Numbered from the stretch's first letter, positions 3,417-13,229 are shown. The stretch is DNA of 24,000 nucleotides from Gammaproteobacteria bacterium (GCA_029881995.1 JAOULO010000010.1:38772-62771); one strand, 5' to 3'. The notes: generated by a model not told the origin, from the sequence alone. Made by a program: numbers and translations.

Positions 3417-4868
3417 ATGTCCATTGACTTCTTATCAAGCAAAGAACTCTTTCTGACCATCGATCAAGGTGGCCATGCCACTCGTGCCATTGCCTTTAAT
3501 GGCCAGGGCGTCATGATCGCTGAAACCCATCAGGACATTCAGGTCCAGCATCCGCGGGAAGATTATGTTGAGCATGATGCCCAAGAACTGGTTAACTCAG
3601 TACAAACCGTACTTAATAAAATGGTCGAGACACTCGGGGATCGAGTCAGTGATGTCATTGCGGCAGGCATGGCAACACAACGCTCGAACATCGTTTGCTG
3701 GGATAAACGTAGCGGTAAAGCATTAACACCCATCATTAGCTGGCAGGATCGACGCAACCACCAATGGCTAAAACAGTTCAAACCCCGTGCCGAAGAAATT
3801 CATAAAACCACCGGACTGTTTTTGTCACCCCATTACGGGGCCAGTAAACTGCGCTGGTGTCTGGAAAACTATCCTGAACTACAAGACGCTCTTGATTCTG
3901 GCGATCTTTGTATGGGCCCCATGGCCAGTTACTTTGTCTTCAGTATCACCAAAGAACATAATTTCCTGACCGATGTGGTGAATGCCTCACGCACCCAGTT
4001 ATGGAGCCTGCATACCAGTGACTGGGATCCTGCATTACTTAAGTTGTTTGATATTCCTCTACAGGCCTTACCGCTTTGTAAACCCAGCGCTTCATGTTTC
4101 GGCCATATACAGCTGGCAGATAAAGATATCCCGCTTAATCTCGTAACCGGAGATCAATCGGCGGCCATGTTTGCCTATGGTCACATTCAACCAGATACCG
4201 CCTATATTAATACCGGCACTGGAGCCTTTGTCTCTCGCCCTTCCGGCCCATTAAAAATCTTTGGCCGCCGTTTACTTACCAGCTTGATCAATCAATCAGA
4301 ACATGAAAGCCAGTATGTCCTGGAAGGTACCGTGAATGGTGCAGGCAGTGCCCTGAGCTGGCTGGCAGAGGAACATAATGTAACTGATATTGAAAACAGG
4401 CTGGCCGACTGGCTGGAACAAGTGACCTCACCCCCTCTGTTTTTTAATGGTATCTCAGGACTGGCGGCCCCATTCTGGATTGCCGACTTCCCCACCCGTT
4501 TTGAAACCGAAAACTGTAGTGACGCTGAAAAGGCCGTTGCAGTAATTGAGAGCGTGGTTTTTTTACTCTGTGCCAATATTGAAGAAATGCAAAAACTTTC
4601 TTCACCACCCGAACAAATCCAGATTACCGGTGGCCTGGCCATTCAGGATGGGTTGTGCCAAAGGCTGGCCGACCTGACCGGTCTTCCCGTCTATCGACCT
4701 GTTGAATGTGAAGCCACTGCCAGGGGAGTTGCCTATTTACTGGTGGAAGAAGTGGATCAATGGCCGGAACAGGAACCTGGTGTCTGGTTTGAACCTGCTA
4801 ACAACCCTGGACTGGAGGAGCGTTATACCCGCTGGACCCAGACCATGTTGGCGATCATGAGAAATTAA
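3417..4868 (+). CDS. FGGY-family carbohydrate kinase, glycerol-kinase-like
   Basis: 483 aa. Aligns by eye with GlpK (IDQGGHATRA vs LDQGTTSSRA; VEHD; TDVVNASRT vs TDYTNASRT; GDQSAAMFA vs GDQQAALFG; NTGTGAF vs TYGTGCF). Shorter than and diverged from E. coli GlpK, so substrate is uncertain. Confidence 0.7.
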   Translation: MSIDFLSSKELFLTIDQGGHATRAIAFNGQGVMIAETHQDIQVQHPREDYVEHDAQELVNSVQTVLNKMVETLGDRVSDVIAAGMATQRSNIVCWDKRSGKALTPIISWQDRRNHQWLKQFKPRAEEIHKTTGLFLSPHYGASKLRWCLENYPELQDALDSGDLCMGPMASYFVFSITKEHNFLTDVVNASRTQLWSLHTSDWDPALLKLFDIPLQALPLCKPSASCFGHIQLADKDIPLNLVTGDQSAAMFAYGHIQPDTAYINTGTGAFVSRPSGPLKIFGRRLLTSLINQSEHESQYVLEGTVNGAGSALSWLAEEHNVTDIENRLADWLEQVTSPPLFFNGISGLAAPFWIADFPTRFETENCSDAEKAVAVIESVVFLLCANIEEMQKLSSPPEQIQITGGLAIQDGLCQRLADLTGLPVYRPVECEATARGVAYLLVEEVDQWPEQEPGVWFEPANNPGLEERYTRWTQTMLAIMRN

Positions 4869-6043: not shown

Positions 6044-6790
6044 TTAATTACCTGCAATATCTCGAGTCTGCTCAAGCATTTCTCCAATGGCAAAGGTCTC
6101 AACAAACTCTATTCCTCGTTTATGAAGTGCTACCGCCAGCTTGGGATCGGTACATTCATAAACTGCCAAATGAGTATTATTCAACTTTAAATCACCTTCA
6201 GCAGGCACGGTTTCCAGATCACAAAAAAAGTATTGTGGATTTAGATCAGCAATAGCCTCATTGTTCCTCTCTTCCCAGTCATCATGTACCGCACCTATAG
6301 GCCATTGGTACTGCTCTGAGACATAGGCTAATGCTTCGATACTGTAGGAAATGATGACACACTGATCTTTAACCGGTTCCAGCGTCGATAAAACCTGCTC
6401 AACCATGAATTCAATACCAAACTTTTCCAGGCTGCTTCGTTTTAGTTCGATAAAAACCGTCACCTTAGGATGAGTCTGCATCAACCCGACCAGATCAAGC
6501 AATGTGGTAATTGGGTTATCGGCAAACTTATTACCAAATCGCCCTGAGTCACTGGCACGAAATTCATTTAATTCAGATGCTGTGTAATCATGTAGGCTAC
6601 CTGCTTGATCACAGAGCCGCTGCATGTCCCGATCATGAAATAGAAAGGGAACCTTGTCCTTACTAAGCTGGATATCAACCTCAAGAAAATTTGCTCCTGC
6701 TTCGATGGCTGCCCCCAAACCCACTAGAGTATTCTCAGGGTAATTTAAGGTATAACCACGATGGGCGACCAAGTTAACTGATTTTTCCAT
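6044..6790 (-). CDS. glycerophosphodiester phosphodiesterase (GDPD family, UgpQ-like)
   Basis: 248 aa. GDPD catalytic N-terminus VAHRGYTLNYPENTL...GANFLEVDIQLSKDKVPFLFHD. Confidence 0.8.
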   Translation of the reverse strand: MEKSVNLVAHRGYTLNYPENTLVGLGAAIEAGANFLEVDIQLSKDKVPFLFHDRDMQRLCDQAGSLHDYTASELNEFRASDSGRFGNKFADNPITTLLDLVGLMQTHPKVTVFIELKRSSLEKFGIEFMVEQVLSTLEPVKDQCVIISYSIEALAYVSEQYQWPIGAVHDDWEERNNEAIADLNPQYFFCDLETVPAEGDLKLNNTHLAVYECTDPKLAVALHKRGIEFVETFAIGEMLEQTRDIAGN

Positions 6791-6828
6791 AACTAAATTT
6801 TACAGGTTATTTTTTATTGAAAAAATAA

Positions 6829-6843
6829 TGTGAATAATTCACA
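6829..6843. promoter_or_regulatory. perfect 15-bp palindrome TGTGAATAATTCACA in the GDPD/luxR divergent intergenic region
   Basis: Seen directly: TGTGA-ATAAT-TCACA. The half-sites equal CRP half-sites, but the spacer is 5 nt rather than 6. It lies about 40 bp from the GDPD start and about 120 bp upstream of the luxR TTG start. Confidence 0.3.
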
Positions 6844-6963
6844 AAATTAATGTTAATTTTTCTCTAACATAATTTTACATTTTTTATAGAATTTATGTTA
6901 ATTTTACCCCAGTACAAGGAAGTTTAGACTAATCATTCTAGTACATTAAAAGTGGGTTAATAG

Positions 6964-7710
6964 TTGGAAAACCTCAAACTTTTTGAATTCATAGACCGAC
7001 TAAACACAGCAAATACTTACGACGTGATTCATGGCGTCTGTATGGACTTTTGCGTGCAATATGGTTTTGACAAGTTTATCTATGCTGCCCGCATTCCAAC
7101 CTCTCTCGTCAGTCCTAACTATATATTTATCAACGGCTACCCGCAGGAATGGCGCGATCATTATGTAGAACAGGACTATTTACGAATCGACCCTACAGTT
7201 TCCCACTGTTTTTCAAAAACCACACCAATTTACTGGGAACATATTGTAAATACAGCATGTAAGGAAAATAAAAATGTTGATAAGCTTTTTGCTGAGGCAG
7301 GTAGTCTGGGCCTGCAAAATGGGATCAGTTTTCCAATTCATTGCATCCATGGTGAAAGTGCCATGTTCAGTATGGCGGTCAATCTGAGTACCGACAAATC
7401 CCGGGACATCATTAAAGAAACCGTCGCTCTTGCACATCTGTTTGTTACCTATGTACATGAAGCGGTCGTCCGCGTCCCCGATAATGGGCTGGTCGCCCAG
7501 GTCAATGCACAGCTTACCTCACGCGAGAAAGAGTGCTTACTATGGACAACAGAGGGAAAGACATCCTGGGAGATATCCCAGATATTAAATATTTCTGAAA
7601 GGACTGTAGTTTTTCACATTAATAATGCAGTTAAAAAACTTGATGTTGTCAACAAACAACATGCCGTAGCTCGTGCGATTTCTCTTGGCCATATTAAACC
7701 TGTTATATAA
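6964..7710 (+). CDS. luxR: LuxR-family AHL-responsive transcriptional regulator (autoinducer-binding domain + GerE/LuxR HTH)
   Basis: 248 aa. All six hallmark pocket residues occur at TraR spacing (EW-RDH-Y...RIDP...PIYW...HGES), and the HTH is LTSREKECLLWTTEGKTSWEISQILNISERTVVFHINNAVKKL. The start is TTG. The next in-frame ATG would remove 26 conserved N-terminal residues. Confidence 0.9.
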   Translation: MENLKLFEFIDRLNTANTYDVIHGVCMDFCVQYGFDKFIYAARIPTSLVSPNYIFINGYPQEWRDHYVEQDYLRIDPTVSHCFSKTTPIYWEHIVNTACKENKNVDKLFAEAGSLGLQNGISFPIHCIHGESAMFSMAVNLSTDKSRDIIKETVALAHLFVTYVHEAVVRVPDNGLVAQVNAQLTSREKECLLWTTEGKTSWEISQILNISERTVVFHINNAVKKLDVVNKQHAVARAISLGHIKPVI

Positions 7711-7760
7711 GGGACATTTAGTAAAACAGTTAATACCATGCAGTAAACCTAATGTAATCT

Positions 7761-7780
7761 ACCTGTAATATTTGACAGCT
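7761..7780 (+). promoter_or_regulatory. lux-box-like 20-bp inverted repeat upstream of luxI
   Basis: ACCTGTAATATTTGACAGCT. 7 of 10 positions pair in the dyad, and 14/20 are identical to the V. fischeri lux box ACCTGTAGGATCGTACAGGT as I recall it. Centre is about 72 bp upstream of the luxI ATG. Confidence 0.6.
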
Positions 7781-7842
7781 TACCCAAAGACTTAAATCAA
7801 GATTTACTTCTCCTGACGACAACTTGAATTGGGAGAAATAAT

Positions 7843-8454
7843 ATGACTATCTACTTTGGCAAAGCTGATGAATTTATTTATGACCACCATACACTCTACA
7901 ATATGTTTAGATTCCGCCATCATATATTCCATGATCGACTCAAGTGGGACGTAAATAGTATTGGTGGAATGGAATACGATGAGTTTGATACGTTGAACCC
8001 ATATCATATGATAGCGGTCAACCACGATCAACAGGTAGAGGCATGCTGGCGTCTCTTACCAACGACAGGCCCCTATATGTTACAGAAAACATTTTCACAA
8101 TTGCTTAAGGGTGAAAATGCACCCTCACAAAATGACGTGTGGGAGTTGAGTCGGTTTGCTGTGATCTCCTCTAATCAGAAAAAATCAACCCAGGCGGTAA
8201 TGAGTGAACTTTCATTTCAAATGTTTCAGCAAACGTATGAATTTGCTATTCAAAATAATATAAAATCCTATGTTACCGTTGTTAGTGCCGCCGTTGAAAG
8301 AATGTTTATGCGTGCAGGCTTTCCTATGCGACGGTTTGGTGATGGTGAGTCACAAAAAATTGGCAAAATTACCACAGTTGCATGCTGGATGGATGTAAAT
8401 GAACAATATAAGGATGCAGCATATCAGCTAAGTAATAGTCGTAATGCCGCATAA
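7843..8454 (+). CDS. luxI: acyl-homoserine-lactone synthase (LuxI family)
   Basis: 203 aa. LuxI signature residues are present: FRFRHHIFHDRLKWDV, EYDEFD, CWRLLPTTGPYML, WELSRFAV. A GGGAGA Shine-Dalgarno lies 6 nt upstream of the ATG. Confidence 0.9.
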   Translation: MTIYFGKADEFIYDHHTLYNMFRFRHHIFHDRLKWDVNSIGGMEYDEFDTLNPYHMIAVNHDQQVEACWRLLPTTGPYMLQKTFSQLLKGENAPSQNDVWELSRFAVISSNQKKSTQAVMSELSFQMFQQTYEFAIQNNIKSYVTVVSAAVERMFMRAGFPMRRFGDGESQKIGKITTVACWMDVNEQYKDAAYQLSNSRNAA

Positions 8455-8466
8455 GTCTTTAATGTG

Positions 8467-8520
8467 CTGTGAACAGGTATCTTTTCAGGCTACAATACCT
8501 GTTCACAGTCTCTATTTTTC
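8467..8520 (+). terminator. strong hairpin plus T-tract between luxI and the second luxR (terminator/attenuator candidate)
   Basis: Perfect 14-bp arms CTGTGAACAGGTAT (8467-8480) and ATACCTGTTCACAG (8495-8508) with a 14-nt loop, followed by TCTCTATTTTTC. Starts 13 nt after the luxI stop. Confidence 0.5.
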
Positions 8521-8536
8521 AAATCAGGTTATTAAA

Positions 8537-9262
8537 ATGGATTTTGACAGCTTATTGGGAAATTTAGAAAATACTAATTGTGTTGAGCAACTTCGAAGCT
8601 GTTGCAATATTTTTGTAGATATACATAACTATGATTATTATTCATTATATGGCTCGATATATACAAGCTTACTAAGTCCTTCCTTACATAAAATTTCAGG
8701 CCCCCATAACAAACGTCCTAAAAATAATGAAACCGAACATGATATCTTACAGACATGCATAGATTCTACAACACCGGTTATATTAGGAAATTTTTCTGAT
8801 TCAAAGTTAATATTTAATCCATTAATCCGTACTATTCACAAACCAAATGCAAGAAAGCTTGATATCTACTTCCCTATACATTTTCCTGTTGGGAAAATTG
8901 CTATTTTTCATCTAACCAAGCGATCCAAAAAAGAAAACATAGAAGAGAGTGTATTTAATATACTACCTAAAGGTAGACAGTTTGCCAGTGAGGCAGGACT
9001 TGCGTTTGTATCACTTATAGAAAAAGAATGGGAAAATATTTATCCCGAACTTTCACAACGAGAGCGCCATTGTCTTTTATTAACTGCGGATGGTTTGTCA
9101 CCAAAAAATATCGCCGAAGAAATAGGCCTTTCCCAGCATACTGTGATCTTCTACTTAAAAAACGTCAGAAAAAAATATGATGCTAAAAATATTCAAAGTG
9201 CCATTAGTAAAGCCATTTTAAAGGGTGACATCATGCCCCAAATGGTTTCAGTTGAAACATGA
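8537..9262 (+). CDS. second LuxR-family regulator with a degenerate autoinducer-binding-like N-domain and intact LuxR/GerE HTH
   Basis: The HTH is LSQRERHCLLLTADGLSPKNIAEEIGLSQHTVIFYLKNVRKKY. The N-domain aligns by eye with the neighbouring LuxR (TSLLSPS / TSLVSPN, STTPV / KTTPI, FPIHFPVGKIAIF / FPIHCIHGESAMF). The track start at 8444 would overlap the luxI stop and read through the hairpin, so I chose the ATG at 8537 (241 aa). Confidence 0.75.
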   Translation: MDFDSLLGNLENTNCVEQLRSCCNIFVDIHNYDYYSLYGSIYTSLLSPSLHKISGPHNKRPKNNETEHDILQTCIDSTTPVILGNFSDSKLIFNPLIRTIHKPNARKLDIYFPIHFPVGKIAIFHLTKRSKKENIEESVFNILPKGRQFASEAGLAFVSLIEKEWENIYPELSQRERHCLLLTADGLSPKNIAEEIGLSQHTVIFYLKNVRKKYDAKNIQSAISKAILKGDIMPQMVSVET

Positions 9263-9739
9263 CTGTTCGCCAGGCTTAGCTTCATGTAGCCAGTTCATAT
9301 ATGCTTTCACTTCAGCAGTATTTTCTTCAGGTGCCCAACTGGCAAAGTCTTTATCGGTCAGCGGAATATATGGTCCCTGCTTGACCTCAAAAAAAACGGC
9401 CCCGTCTTCCAATGCAAGGACGGTATGCCATGTATCAGGTTTTATTTCTGCTCCCAGCACATCACCATTAGCTGAAAACTCTATACGTTCTGTGACTTTT
9501 CCACCATCATCAAATATCAATGCTGCAAAAGCCCCTTTTACAGCAATAAACAGTTCAGTCTTTTCTTTTTCAGGGTGTCGATGAGGCCTGACATAACTAT
9601 CCGTTTGCATGGCAATAAAAAGTTTCTGTAGCGGGGCATCAAGCGATTCATGCAGGTTTAGATTTGTTCTTCTTCTGGGTGATGAAACAGCTTCCTGATT
9701 GAGCCTTTCCAGCATTTTTTTATCCAGTTGCTTAATCAT
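9248..9739 (-). CDS. WbuC-family cupin-fold metalloprotein
   Basis: 163 aa. The N-terminal SPRRRTNLNLHESLDAPLQKLFIAM....YVRPHRH matches the WbuC-family pattern as I recall it. The ATG is 1 nt after the upstream gene's TAA, with a GGGTGA Shine-Dalgarno. Confidence 0.7.
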   Translation of the reverse strand: MIKQLDKKMLERLNQEAVSSPRRRTNLNLHESLDAPLQKLFIAMQTDSYVRPHRHPEKEKTELFIAVKGAFAALIFDDGGKVTERIEFSANGDVLGAEIKPDTWHTVLALEDGAVFFEVKQGPYIPLTDKDFASWAPEENTAEVKAYMNWLHEAKPGEQSCFN

Positions 9740-9740
9740 G

Positions 9741-11717
9741 TTAAATCACCCGATCATTACCACCATCTACAGGCAATTGGGCACCCGTAGTTTTGGCGAA
9801 TAGTTTGCCACACATTTCGGCCACCAGTTCAGCCACATCATGGCTACTAACTTCTGTTTTAAGAATATTTTTCCGTTTGTACTCATCGACCGAAAGGCCA
9901 TAGGATTCGGCTCTGGAGTTCAGCACTTCATCCGTCCAGATGCCTGTATCAAACACAGCATCCGGGTGTAGGGTATTGACCCGGATATTATCCTGCCCCC
10001 ATTCCAGGGCCGCCACCCTGGCCAATTGATTGATTCCAGCCTTGGCTACCGAATAGGCCGCTGCACCGGGGCCAGGGGCCAGCACGTTCTTGGATCCCAT
10101 CATCACAACCCGACCACCATTAGGCGCAATTTTCAATAGTGGATAGGCCTCTCGCATTAACATGAGATTGGAATCCAGATTAATCTGCATCACTTCACGC
10201 CAGCTTTCATCACTGAGTGCATATATATTTTGACTCTTTGGAAAAATCCCGGCATTCAAAATTAACATATCAATACCACCAAAGTGTCTTACAGCCTTTT
10301 CCAGGGCCAGCTCTACATGTTGCCTGATACTCACATCACAGCTTATTCCTAAATAAGCCGGCTGTTGCTCAAGAGACTCAACAGCATCATTAATATCCAG
10401 ACCAATTACAGCAGCACCTCTGGCCAGAAATGAGTTTACACAGGCCAGACCTATTCCAGATGCTGCGCCTGTAATAAGGACAACTTCACCCATAAACTCC
10501 GGGCTTGCTCCTGATTTTTTCAGTTTTGCCTGCTCCAGTTCCCAATACTCAACATCAAAAATATCTTTTGCCGGTAATGCCCGATATTCACCTAAGCGAG
10601 TAGCCCTGGTAATAACATCAATGGTGTGATCATAAATATCAGCAATTATTGCTGTCTCTTTTGCAGTAGCCCCAACAGTCCCGACTCCAAGTTCATGATC
10701 CAGAATGACTCGTGGAGTAGGATCCAACATCGATAACGCCTGTTTTGCACTGGACTCATGGGCTTTGAAATATTTTGTATACTCCTGTACATAAGCATCT
10801 ACGTCCATGCCTAACATTGGCAACCTTTTGGTCCGAATCACATGATCAGGTGTTGCCGGTCCTTCCTGAGAAATATCGCCGAGGTCTTCCCGGTTGACAA
10901 AATCAAGATTCTTGAGGCCTGAATTAAAACTAACCAGCATCGGTTTTTTGGCATGCTTCGAAATATCACTGCGGAGTTCAGAAATTTTCTGAACATGAGA
11001 CTTGCCATCATCCACCTCTTTGTTGGAACTCAGGATAGTCCAGGCCTTGTTTTGTTTGATGTAGGATTCAGCCATGCTTACCAAAGAAATCATTCTTTCA
11101 TAAGACTCTTTGGCTGTTTCACCAAATGAGAAAATTCCGTGGTTCATTAATACCATCCCAATGGTGTTGTCATTCACCTGCTTGGGAAATTCTGTGGCAC
11201 ATAACCTTGCCAGATCGAAACCGGGCATGCAGTAGGGAAGAATTACAACTTTGTCTCCATAGATATCCTTGATTCGGTTCAGACCATTTGGTGTATTGGT
11301 TATGGTCACCAGTGAATCAGCATGGGTATGGTCAACATATTTATACGGTAGAATCGCATGTAAAATTGCCTCAACCGAAGGTGTAGGAGCCGAAGCATTG
11401 GTCATGTGGGTCTTTAACTCATTGACCATCTGTGAATCACTCAGGGTTTCGAGTTCCGCCAGGCGAACCAGATGATTTAAACGTACAGGTGAAAAACCGG
11501 GGCGTTCTATAAACTCAAGATCCCAGCCACTACCTTTCACATACAGAATCGTTTCTGTTTCACCCAGAATATTCTGTTCATCAATCTTGACCGAGGTATT
11601 TCCACCTCCATGTAAAACCAGTGTCTTGTCTCTACCAAGTAATCGTGAACTATAGACCCTTAGATCAAGTTCATCTTTACACTGTTCAGCCTCTTCCGAA
11701 GTCCACAAGCTATTCAT
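9741..11717 (-). CDS. bifunctional class II aldolase/adducin-domain + short-chain dehydrogenase (rhamnulose-1-phosphate aldolase/alcohol dehydrogenase-like)
   Basis: 658 aa. The N-terminal half is aldolase-like (LHGGGNTSVK, VDHTHAD). The C-terminal half is an SDR (VVLITGAASGIGLA Rossmann motif, NAGI, YSVAKAG catalytic Y-x3-K). The track start at 11720 is TTG. The ATG at 11717 overlaps the upstream TGA (TGATG). Confidence 0.85.
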   Translation of the reverse strand: MNSLWTSEEAEQCKDELDLRVYSSRLLGRDKTLVLHGGGNTSVKIDEQNILGETETILYVKGSGWDLEFIERPGFSPVRLNHLVRLAELETLSDSQMVNELKTHMTNASAPTPSVEAILHAILPYKYVDHTHADSLVTITNTPNGLNRIKDIYGDKVVILPYCMPGFDLARLCATEFPKQVNDNTIGMVLMNHGIFSFGETAKESYERMISLVSMAESYIKQNKAWTILSSNKEVDDGKSHVQKISELRSDISKHAKKPMLVSFNSGLKNLDFVNREDLGDISQEGPATPDHVIRTKRLPMLGMDVDAYVQEYTKYFKAHESSAKQALSMLDPTPRVILDHELGVGTVGATAKETAIIADIYDHTIDVITRATRLGEYRALPAKDIFDVEYWELEQAKLKKSGASPEFMGEVVLITGAASGIGLACVNSFLARGAAVIGLDINDAVESLEQQPAYLGISCDVSIRQHVELALEKAVRHFGGIDMLILNAGIFPKSQNIYALSDESWREVMQINLDSNLMLMREAYPLLKIAPNGGRVVMMGSKNVLAPGPGAAAYSVAKAGINQLARVAALEWGQDNIRVNTLHPDAVFDTGIWTDEVLNSRAESYGLSVDEYKRKNILKTEVSSHDVAELVAEMCGKLFAKTTGAQLPVDGGNDRVI

Positions 11718-12169
11718 CAATTTGTTACCACGATATGTTCAAGGTTGTTGTTATCTAATGAACCCCGAATGCCAAATACGTCTGGATATACCTCCGAATA
11801 AAAAAAATGGCTTTCGCACTTACAATCAGAGGAACCAAGCCCCGGCATCGGGATTTGTAATTTTATAGTGTAATACAGCCTGTCGGACCAGGCATGTTCG
11901 CATTTAATATTATCCGTACTATACCAGAGCTCACGCAGAAGGAGATGGGGACGAATATAGTCCAGGTGCCAGTGTGGTTTCTTACTAACTCCCTGGTGAT
12001 GACGTATTCTGGCCCGAAGTCCTCCTGAACCGAAAGCGCTACCGACATAGAAATAATATCCTGGCACCAGTTCCAGGCTACCGCGTCGCCCGACATTCAC
12101 CATGACCTGTTTGTCCGATTGAAATACCAGCAGGTATGTCCCTGCTATCGGTGGAATATCTTCAAGCAT
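11717..12169 (-). CDS. DUF123 / GIY-YIG nuclease-superfamily protein
   Basis: 150 aa. GTYLLVF...PGYYFYVGSAFGSGGLRARIRHH....KPHWHLDY, then a C-terminal GLGSSDCKCESHFFY. This is the DUF123 pattern as I recall it. Confidence 0.75.
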   Translation of the reverse strand: MLEDIPPIAGTYLLVFQSDKQVMVNVGRRGSLELVPGYYFYVGSAFGSGGLRARIRHHQGVSKKPHWHLDYIRPHLLLRELWYSTDNIKCEHAWSDRLYYTIKLQIPMPGLGSSDCKCESHFFYSEVYPDVFGIRGSLDNNNLEHIVVTN

Positions 12170-12248: not shown

Positions 12249-13229
12249 CTAATCGAAACGCTTACGATCATGGGGTAGGCCGTAATCGATGGCTGGCCCC
12301 TTGGGCACAATCCGGCTGGGATTAATGGTGGGATGACTCCAGTAATAATGGCGCTTGATATGATCCATAAAGACTGTCTCTGCAATACCTGGCTGCTGAT
12401 ATAAATCTCGCAAATAATTTGACAGGTTTGGATAGTCAACAATACGCTGACGATTGCACTTGAAGTGACCAACATAGACAGGGTCAAACCTTACCAGGGT
12501 TGTAAATAGACGCCAGTCGGCTTCAGTTATTTGTGTGCCCGTCAGATACCGTTGCTGGCCAAGGCGAGATTCTACCTCATCCAGAGCAGAAAAAAGATTG
12601 TCAAAGGCCTTCTCATAGGCCTGCTGACTGGTCGCAAAACCCGTTCGGTACACGCCGTTATTAATATTGTGATAAATAAACTCATTGATTTTATCGATAT
12701 CCGAACGCAGGTTTTCCGGATAATAATCTGCGGTATCACCTGTCAGGGTATTAAAGGCGGTATTGAACATCCGGATGATCTCGGAAGACTCATTGTTCAC
12801 AATGGTCTGCTGCTGTTTGTCATACAGTACCGGGACAGTCACGATGCCTGAATAGTCCGGCCTGGCCTGTTGATAGACCTGGTACATGAAATCACAGTTA
12901 TTAAGATGATCCTCTGTGGCCCCATCAAAGCTACCAAACTTCCAGCCTTCCGGCCCCATATCCGGACTGACCACCGAAACACTGATCAAATCCTCGAGTT
13001 TTTTGAGTTTACGAAAGATCAGGGTGCGATGTGCCCAGGGACAGGCATGGGAAATATAGAGGTGATAACGACCGGCTTCGGCTTTAAAACCGTCACCGCC
13101 GCTTTGACCTGCCGTTCCGTCCGCCGTTACCCAATGCCTGAATTGAGAGTCCTGCCGGATGAATTCCCCCTCTTCCGAGGTCGAGGGCTCCCAGTCCAGC
13201 CTAAGTTCACCATTTAATAAGATACTCAT
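12249..13229 (-). CDS. yqjG: glutathionyl-hydroquinone reductase (Xi-class GST, YqjG/ECM4 family)
   Basis: 326 aa. Has the characteristic GRYHLYISHACPWAHRTLIFRKLK motif with the CPWA active site, followed by a GST C-terminal-like domain. Confidence 0.85.
   Translation of the reverse strand: MSILLNGELRLDWEPSTSEEGEFIRQDSQFRHWVTADGTAGQSGGDGFKAEAGRYHLYISHACPWAHRTLIFRKLKKLEDLISVSVVSPDMGPEGWKFGSFDGATEDHLNNCDFMYQVYQQARPDYSGIVTVPVLYDKQQQTIVNNESSEIIRMFNTAFNTLTGDTADYYPENLRSDIDKINEFIYHNINNGVYRTGFATSQQAYEKAFDNLFSALDEVESRLGQQRYLTGTQITEADWRLFTTLVRFDPVYVGHFKCNRQRIVDYPNLSNYLRDLYQQPGIAETVFMDHIKRHYYWSHPTINPSRIVPKGPAIDYGLPHDRKRFD

Follow-up and report, generated by a model that had tools for sequence, protein, structure and literature searches.

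A predicted LasR/LasI-type quorum-sensing locus with a second, divergent LuxR-type gene at a conserved site in uncultured Gammaproteobacteria

The presence of two luxR-type genes around a single luxI-type gene, in an AT-rich region between two groups of metabolic genes, raises the question of whether such a locus is an island gained by horizontal transfer, and of what role, if any, the second LuxR-type protein has. We have analyzed a locus of this kind (6791-9262) in a 24,000-nt stretch of DNA, hereafter the window, from an assembly labelled Gammaproteobacteria bacterium (GCA_029881995.1 JAOULO010000010.1:38772-62771). An original prediction, made from the sequence alone, had described three co-directional genes encoding a LuxR receptor, a LuxI-type synthase of N-acyl-homoserine lactones (AHL) and a second LuxR-type protein, in the unusual order R-I-R'. 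Open reading frames (ORFs) and Pfam domains confirm the three genes, where that prediction had placed them, and their order: luxR1 (6964-7710, TTG start, 248 aa), luxI (7843-8454, 203 aa) and luxR2 (8537-9262, 241 aa) all lie on the + strand, with luxI 132 bp 3' of luxR1 and luxR2 82 bp 3' of luxI. The locus is a predicted AHL quorum-sensing system of the LasR/LasI type. The model that we favor, with moderate confidence, is that of an autoinduction loop of LuxR1 and AHL that would also drive LuxR2, itself blind to the signal, in a cassette inherited at a fixed site.

The profile searches suggested at the outset, with PF00765 (Autoind_synth), PF03472 (Autoind_bind) and PF00196 (GerE), separated the three products clearly. 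LuxR1 matches both PF03472 (2.5e-36) and PF00196 (4.3e-19), LuxI matches PF00765 over profile positions 6-179 of 183 (145.7 bits for a cutoff of 24, E 1.5e-42), and LuxR2 matches PF00196 only (1.4e-13). The closest solved relatives of LuxR1 are QscR (2.5e-36) and LasR (1.3e-33), and that of LuxI is LasI (1ro5, 1.2e-38, residues 2-194), in an alignment that contains, residue by residue, the RxxxF, W, CWRLLPTTGPYML and WELSRFA elements. Nine residues have been defined as diagnostic of AHL-type LuxR proteins (PMC10134790). The equivalents in LuxR1 of TraR W57, Y61, D70, P71, W85, G113, E178, L182 and G188, mapped through the alignment with LasR, are W63, Y67, D76, P77, W91, G120, E188, L192 and G198, and all of them are invariant in five orthologues. 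Residues 1-30 counted from TTG 6964 are also strongly conserved in five orthologues, and therefore the public metagenome gene call for luxR1, which starts 30 codons late at GTG 7054 and yields 218 aa, is truncated and the TTG 6964 start is right. There are 19 orthologues of LuxI with at least 63% identity, the next ones having at most 54%. The NCBIfam equivalog models for SdiA, TraR and TraI all scored below their own cutoffs on LuxR1 and LuxI. By these features LuxR1 and LuxI are predicted new members of known families, a LasR/LasI-like pair that is otherwise ordinary; the likeness to LasI was judged too weak a basis to state an acyl-chain length.

To place the locus among its relatives, species-representative genomes were scanned with the glycerophosphodiester phosphodiesterase (GDPD) encoded beside luxR1, and all window proteins were compared by tblastn with the resulting 71 loci, all but two of which come from metagenome-assembled genomes (MAGs) and which are labelled mostly as Gammaproteobacteria, Chromatiales, Acidiferrobacterales and Thiohalophilus. 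Domain annotation agrees with the flanks first described, a glycerophosphodiester/glycerol-3-phosphate cluster and a convergent sugar/aldehyde operon: on one side lie GDPD, a FAD-dependent glycerol-3-phosphate dehydrogenase (G3PDH) and glycerol kinase, and on the other, convergent with luxR2, a WbuC-family cupin and a fusion of class-II aldolase and short-chain dehydrogenase/reductase (AldSDR). The four closest loci, L001, L016, L002 and L003 (GDPD 72, 67, 59 and 59% identical to that of the window), carry exactly the arrangement AldSDR-WbuC-[luxR2-luxI-luxR1]-GDPD-G3PDH. The same GDPD-luxR1-luxI-luxR2-WbuC arrangement was found in L080 and L082, the contexts of further LuxR2 homologues, and the flanking proteins of these six genomes are 58-79% identical to those of the window. 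In two more loci, L081 and L084, the GDPD/WbuC site still holds luxR1 and luxR2, and luxI has been lost. The lux locus is present at this site in every relative whose GDPD is at least 55% identical and whose contig covers the site, and the 3' ends of luxR2 and WbuC, which overlap by 15 bp in the window (9248-9262), do so by 15-21 bp in 5/5 genomes compared. On a further, short contig (L083), a 47%-identical luxI lies directly 5' of a 30%-identical luxR2-like gene. No luxI or luxR was found within 10 kb of GDPD in the remaining 66 loci.

Among the MAGs, those closest to the window carry the label Chromatiales or are unclassified Gammaproteobacteria, and relatives labelled Acidiferrobacterales are further off; the nearest relatives of the window GDPD include Acidiferrobacterales-type MAGs, and the nearest outgroups of LuxI, at around 50% identity, include one named Sulfuricaulis sp. 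An ENA metagenome contig (ERZ27296342) and a Logan contig (SRR7132771) each match the window at 99.9% identity. The conserved gene order indicates that, in a clade of uncultured Gammaproteobacteria, the trio is inherited at a fixed GDPD/luxR1-luxI-luxR2/WbuC site. It may have been inserted there in ancient times, at the base of this clade, in which case it would still be no recent island. A search for an ancestral empty site showed WbuC immediately upstream of GDPD, without the trio, only in the distant L033; other outgroups have unrelated genes upstream of GDPD.

The AT skew of the locus had been taken originally as a sign of horizontal acquisition, and a recent island, with an AT-rich trio inserted between two metabolic operons, would indeed account for some observations: the region 6791-9262 has a GC content of 0.367 compared with 0.457 in the rest of the window, with dips to 0.32-0.35 at 6500-7250 and 8250-9250 in 500-nt sliding windows, the third gene has a GC content at third codon positions (GC3) of 0.256, L033 has the flanks joined and no trio, and gene order upstream of GDPD is variable outside the clade. 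Of the seven G+C counts made by hand on which the skew had been based, six were exact and that at 8581-8640 was off by one (17/60, not 18/60). When computed over whole genes, the deviation is nonetheless confined to a part of the locus. The other 20 genes of the window have a mean GC content of 0.465 (sd 0.039), and both luxR1 (0.419, z -1.2) and luxI (0.397, z -1.7) are within the window range, with ordinary codon usage (z of the distance to pooled window genes 0.3 and 0.7, respectively). It is luxR2 that stands out (GC 0.335, z -3.3), with a codon-usage distance that is high for its length (z 1.6), together with the spacer between the divergent GDPD and luxR1 genes (6791-6963, GC 0.208), which presumably holds the luxR1 promoter region. 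This spacer shows no sequence conservation among relatives, and a promoter/terminator scanner returned for it only generic promoter-like matches, no more than in shuffles. As only luxR2 and the spacer deviate, the supposed AT-rich island comes down to one AT-rich gene and one AT-rich promoter spacer.

The composition of luxR2 in other genomes bears on the same question. Its GC content follows that of its locus in L001 (0.53/0.53), L016 (0.44/0.45), L002 (0.50/0.53) and L003 (0.39/0.44), and the window copy alone is markedly below its host, so that the AT-richness is specific to this lineage and not a foreign signature; it is best read as accelerated drift of a weakly constrained gene. Nor are there traces of mobility: no tRNA gene was found in the window, there is no meaningful flanking repeat, repeats being at chance level except for a hairpin described below, and no integrase or transposase is present among the called genes around the locus, in line with what had been noted at first sight; plasmid and phage collections gave no match to it either. 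A recent horizontal island is thus very improbable, given in addition that the trio occupies the same site in six genomes and in two luxI-less derivatives, and that the overlap of luxR2 with WbuC is conserved. The original prediction had itself named, besides whole-gene composition, two comparisons of gene order that bear on acquisition. Conservation of the three genes at this position, which would refute it, was found throughout this clade and did not extend to the 66 more distant GDPD loci, while adjacency of GDPD and WbuC where the trio is absent, which would speak for it, was seen in L033 and not in the other outgroups.

The regulatory elements of luxI are conserved as well. A 20-bp dyad of the CT-N12-AG type, ACCTGTAATATTTGACAGCT (7761-7780, + strand), is located 62 nt 5' of the luxI ATG and is the sole lux box match in 24 kb, none being expected from shuffles. 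The consensus ACCTGTCAAATTTGACAGCT occurs at the same position in L001, L016, L002, L003, L082 and L081, and boxes that resemble it precede the outgroup luxI genes of around 50% identity. With this box, LuxR1 combines the features expected of a predicted AHL receptor, namely the two domains, the nine residues, an adjacent luxI and a lux box. A conserved -10-like hexamer, TTTACT in the window (7803-7808), was recognized by visual alignment 22-23 nt 3' of the box, as TTTACT or TTAACT in relatives, and we infer that it would put the center of the lux box near -44. This is the usual location in LuxR-activated promoters.

Between this hexamer and luxI there is a conserved C-rich element (CTCC/CTCCC-TGAC, 7809-7836, + strand). 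Each of the six loci preserves its complementarity to the Shine-Dalgarno sequence of luxI, GGGAG, and L016 shows what looks like a covariation (GUCCC/GGGAC). Single-sequence folds of the leader gave z values of -1.7 to -3.2 (6 loci), and the fold of the alignment is weak (RNAalifold, 4 pairs, -1.6 kcal/mol). The element could be part of a leader hairpin that sequesters the Shine-Dalgarno sequence, or a GC-rich promoter discriminator, depending on where transcription starts; since transcription may begin only after the 5' arm, a luxI-leader riboregulator is not claimed. A search of Rfam gave no match in 6500-9600 at E up to 1.

The question then becomes what kind of protein LuxR2 is. Its ORF is open from 8444, and the ATG at 8537 agrees with the N-termini of its orthologues. 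The first description of the third gene as degenerate holds for the ligand domain: PF03472 is not matched by LuxR2 of the window even at E up to 1, and only weakly by 3/5 orthologues (best 1.4e-05). Nevertheless, comparison of LuxR2 with the LuxR1 profile (hhalign) extends over 238 columns (probability 99.8%, E 2.8e-30), and its AlphaFold2 model (predicted local distance difference test, pLDDT, 80.4; predicted template modelling score, pTM, 0.66) aligns in Foldseek with full-length QscR, RhlR and SdiA over around 240 columns (E 8e-12 to 1e-10, TM 0.55-0.62). LuxR2 is therefore, on the basis of profile and model, a full-length paralogue of LuxR1 with the LuxR fold over both domains. What it lacks is the pocket. 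In a joint alignment, the equivalents of W57, Y61, D70, P71 and W85 are replaced by non-conserved residues in 10/10 family members, as are those of LasR Y56 and S129, and that of G113 is kept in 4/10. The W57 position, for example, is occupied by R, I, S, T, V, T, V, G, I and A in the ten members, and five residues are deleted from the family around the D70 position. Even without an alignment it is plain that residues 1-160 contain no tryptophan in any of the ten proteins. In the DNA-binding domain, on the other hand, the equivalents of E178, L182 and G188 are invariant in 10/10 members, as is the pattern of the recognition helix, and there are 38 invariant columns across the family, including an FPxH core.

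This family is small. A single-sequence search with LuxR2 among 5.8 billion proteins returned only itself, a profile built from the five orthologues found by synteny returned ten family members and otherwise only response regulators with a GerE domain, and, when 1.84 billion cluster representatives were searched exhaustively with HMMER, 4-5 family clusters were recovered. Beyond these, scores drop steeply (183 bits, then 118), and the next proteins are ordinary LuxR receptors of 248 aa with the YPxEW...DP...W signature. LuxR2 keeps the helix-turn-helix for DNA binding and probably cannot bind AHL, and the loss of the AHL-contacting residues along with the retained helix-turn-helix argues for reading it as a putative signal-blind DNA-binding regulator. 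Alternatively, it could be the receptor of a non-AHL ligand, with a pocket remodelled as in PluR/PauR or OryR-type proteins, and provide a second input to the circuit. Such a role would fit the retention of the ligand-domain fold in the model and the fact that pocket residues have been replaced and the domain not deleted, and it has precedents among LuxR proteins (PMC10134790; PMC6691176). We regard it as unlikely, since the ten members differ at the replaced positions, which speaks against a specific pocket common to all, the N-terminal domain has a mean pairwise identity of 34% and carries the deletion mentioned above, and there are no biosynthetic genes for another signal nearby.

LuxR2 also evolves fast. 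In the same genome pairs, identity is 31-54% for LuxR2, 65-82% for LuxR1, 64-76% for LuxI and 50-83% for the flanking proteins, and the rate of non-synonymous substitution (dN) of LuxR2 is 2-5x that of its neighbors (0.63 vs 0.11-0.22 between the window and L001). Change is unevenly distributed, with a mean pairwise identity of 56% in the DNA-binding domain compared with that of the N-terminal domain given above. The ratio to synonymous substitution (dN/dS) was 0.22-0.29 in two measurable pairs, with 0.06-0.16 for the neighbors, the Nei-Gojobori estimate being usable in two or three pairs only and unusable for most because synonymous sites are saturated (proportion of synonymous differences, pS, 0.7-0.9). 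The ORF is intact in at least 10 lineages (241-261 aa). We also observed that identities do not pair the genomes in the same way along the locus: for LuxR1, LuxI and WbuC the window is most similar to L001 (82%, 76% and 71%), while for AldSDR, GDPD and LuxR2 it is L001 and L016 that go together (83%, 74% and 50%), LuxR2 of the window being 37-41% identical to the copies in these two loci. This discordance (window 6044-11720, L001, L016) could be due to rate heterogeneity, or to a portion of the cassette having recombined among members of the clade.

The two loci without luxI are informative on the function of luxR2. In L081 (3476-3675), luxI has been deleted down to a remnant of 8 codons that begins with ATGACT..., and the lux box (3502-3521) and the -10-like element are intact and now lie around 155 bp 5' of luxR2. 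In L084 (1270-1308), luxR2 follows luxR1 after 39 bp; WbuC has degenerated there, and another luxR1-like gene comes next. Sequence comparison shows the twin-luxR state of these loci to have arisen from R-I-R' when luxI was deleted. That luxR2 has been retained behind a lux-box promoter after loss of the synthase argues that it is functional and an output of LuxR1.

These data also bear on the possibility that LuxR2 is a relic in decay, with no regulatory role, in which selection on a duplicated receptor has been relaxed and a drift to AT-richness leads towards a pseudogene. Its elevated dN, the loss of ligand-pocket residues, the tiny size of the family and the condition of the window copy, more diverged and lower in GC and GC3 than any other, are what such decay would produce. 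The intact ORF in every lineage seen, the invariant helix-turn-helix residues, recognition-helix pattern and columns, a dN/dS below 1 where measurable, the confident structural model and the persistence of luxR2 in two genomes after luxI was lost are not, and we judge a relic improbable. Taken together, intact ORFs, a DNA-binding domain more conserved than the N-terminal one, a dN/dS below 1 in the two measurable pairs and retention after the loss of luxI make luxR2 look like a gene that is still functional.

How luxR2 is transcribed depends on the spacer that separates it from luxI, most of which is filled by a hairpin (8466-8509, + strand) with a 15-bp perfect stem and a 14-nt loop, followed by a T-rich tract, TCTCTATTTTT, and ending 28 bp before the luxR2 ATG. 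Its repeat arms are at 8467-8480 and 8495-8508, and its predicted folding energy is -21.9 kcal/mol (z -4.1). The promoter/terminator scanner skipped it because its loop exceeds 8 nt, and the rest of the scanner output was no more than in shuffles. In L002 (8187-8262, z -4.7), L003 (3216-3296, z -4.4) and L001 (4040-4148, z -1.5), the corresponding spacer also contains a hairpin, unrelated in sequence, whereas L016 has none, so that 4/5 genomes compared have one. Hairpins found at the same place with unrelated sequence are a pattern typical of terminators or attenuators, and the element at 8466-8509 is probably a partial terminator or attenuator. The palindrome (8467-8508) was also considered as an operator for LuxR2 and rejected as primary reading, because the 28-bp spacing of its arms, center to center, does not fit a 20-bp LuxR box, and because its sequence differs in each species although the helix-turn-helix of LuxR2 is conserved. 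Downstream of the hairpin, the putative ribosome-binding site of luxR2 reads CAGG in the window (8527-8531) and CAGGG in two other assemblies of the same organism (L072:9990-9995); this difference of 1 nt is the sole indel in 13 kb of 99.9%-identical sequence.

In the model that these elements suggest, LuxI would make an AHL, and LuxR1 bound to it would activate the luxI promoter through the lux box, in a positive autoinduction for which the conserved parts argue. luxR2 would most likely be transcribed from the luxI promoter by read-through of the hairpin, as the arrangement in L081 supports, and LuxR2 would then be a quorum-induced, AHL-blind, DNA-binding regulator. More speculatively, it might act as a downstream relay of the quorum signal to other promoters, or as a brake through competition for lux boxes or formation of heterodimers with LuxR1. 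We tentatively propose, as a possible rather than a probable reading, that LuxR2 represents a clade-restricted class of LuxR proteins within a quorum-sensing cassette, which has shed its pocket and would be a lux-box controlled, signal-blind, quorum-induced relay or brake, evolving fast and kept after loss of the synthase, when the remaining pair could become an eavesdropping cascade from LuxR1 to LuxR2.

Several observations weigh against this interpretation. The hairpin could be an efficient terminator, in which case luxR2 would need its own promoter, and a good -10 hexamer, TACAAT, is in fact present within the hairpin loop and 3' arm, which may mean that a promoter is embedded in the palindrome. 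No recognizable lux box was found in L080. The alignment of the pocket region is uncertain, pLDDT being 60-72 at residues 45-75 of the model. With synonymous sites saturated, purifying selection on LuxR2 is poorly quantified. Finally, LuxR2 of the window is 31-41% identical to four orthologues that are 39-54% identical among themselves, and this divergence and its AT-richness could indicate that luxR2 is drifting towards loss in this particular lineage.

Some other observations were made in and around these loci. The outgroup luxI genes of around 50% identity are found in cassettes with the order luxR-luxI-orf-GGDEF/EAL (L074:6624-8802, L076:6628-8408, L078:6621-8472), in which the orf encodes a conserved protein of 143-150 aa for which Pfam gave no match at E up to 1; in L074, luxI is preceded by a tandem pair of luxR genes. 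The composition of these cassettes suggests AHL signalling wired to the turnover of cyclic di-GMP. Collinearity between the window and L072, the ENA contig, ends inside a gene of the glutathione S-transferase (GST) family (12249-13229), at window position 13092 and L072 position 14556, beyond which DoxX and a LysR-type gene follow in L072. A rearrangement at strain level, or a join made in assembly, could explain the break. A defense system was considered and rejected, as the PADLOC match corresponds to a generic helix-turn-helix only.

Among known systems, LasR/LasI and QscR of Pseudomonas aeruginosa share with this locus the two-domain receptor and the nine hallmark residues, besides being the best solved relatives, and LasR/LasI also share the 20-bp CT-N12-AG dyad 5' of the synthase gene and the same direction of R and I. 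The relationship is distant, however, there is no rsaL between R and I here, a third LuxR-fold gene follows luxI, and the gammaproteobacterial host is uncultured, its nearest relatives by GDPD being labelled Chromatiales and Acidiferrobacterales. With regard to a possible brake, a LuxR paralogue could poison or modulate its cognate receptor via heterodimers, as in dominant-negative TraR derivatives of the TrlR/TraS type. TrlR keeps the ligand domain and is devoid of the DNA-binding domain; LuxR2 is the reverse, with the DNA-binding domain kept and the pocket lost.

Two luxR paralogues with one luxI are also present in Aliivibrio salmonicida and A. logei. Inactivation of either luxR in A. salmonicida reduces the AHL made by LuxI, and a heterodimer has been proposed (PMC4377199); both Aliivibrio LuxR proteins are AHL-responsive activators (PMC8224577). 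There, luxCDABEG lie between the two luxR genes, and LuxR2 here differs in lacking the AHL pocket residues. The LuxR solos MalR, CepR2, CarR, PluR/PauR and those of the OryR type have the LuxR fold and do not respond to AHL, as we propose for LuxR2, although MalR, CepR2 and CarR keep six of the six pocket residues and OryR-type proteins change W57 and Y61 only (PMC10134790), while LuxR2 has lost 5/6. A solo is defined by the absence of luxI within around 3 kb (PMC4357305), a definition that fails for luxR2 of the window, directly 3' of luxI, and holds only in the derived L081 and L084. These two loci, with co-directional luxR genes side by side of which one lacks AHL-binding motifs, resemble in turn the twin luxR arrangement (PMC4357305), and differ from it in being derived from R-I-R' and, in the case of L081, in retaining a lux box and the remnant of the luxI start.

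Additional conserved genes in R/I cassettes are known in the form of rsaL, rsaM, mupX and BCAM1871, the latter 3' of cepI and co-transcribed with it. In the cases known, such embedded third genes tune the quorum-sensing circuit, usually negatively (PMC3386692; PMC3356288). Their products, unlike LuxR2, do not have the LuxR fold, and rsaL and rsaM are placed between R and I. An R-I-R' class is not described in the 2012 text on quorum-sensing topologies consulted here (PMC3386692).

This work documents a predicted AHL quorum-sensing system in a poorly known clade of uncultured Gammaproteobacteria, and exposes an R-I-R' cassette that is conserved and in which the third gene encodes a LuxR protein that would have kept DNA binding and lost the signal pocket, a family with around 10 sequences among 5.8 billion proteins. 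It also offers a cautionary case, in which a local AT dip originates from a single fast-evolving gene and not from horizontal transfer. The natural luxI-deletion variants constitute a ready-made evolutionary experiment on the rewiring of receptor paralogues, and LuxR2 is the most interesting element of the locus, which would be all the more so if it proves to be a quorum-induced, signal-blind regulator.

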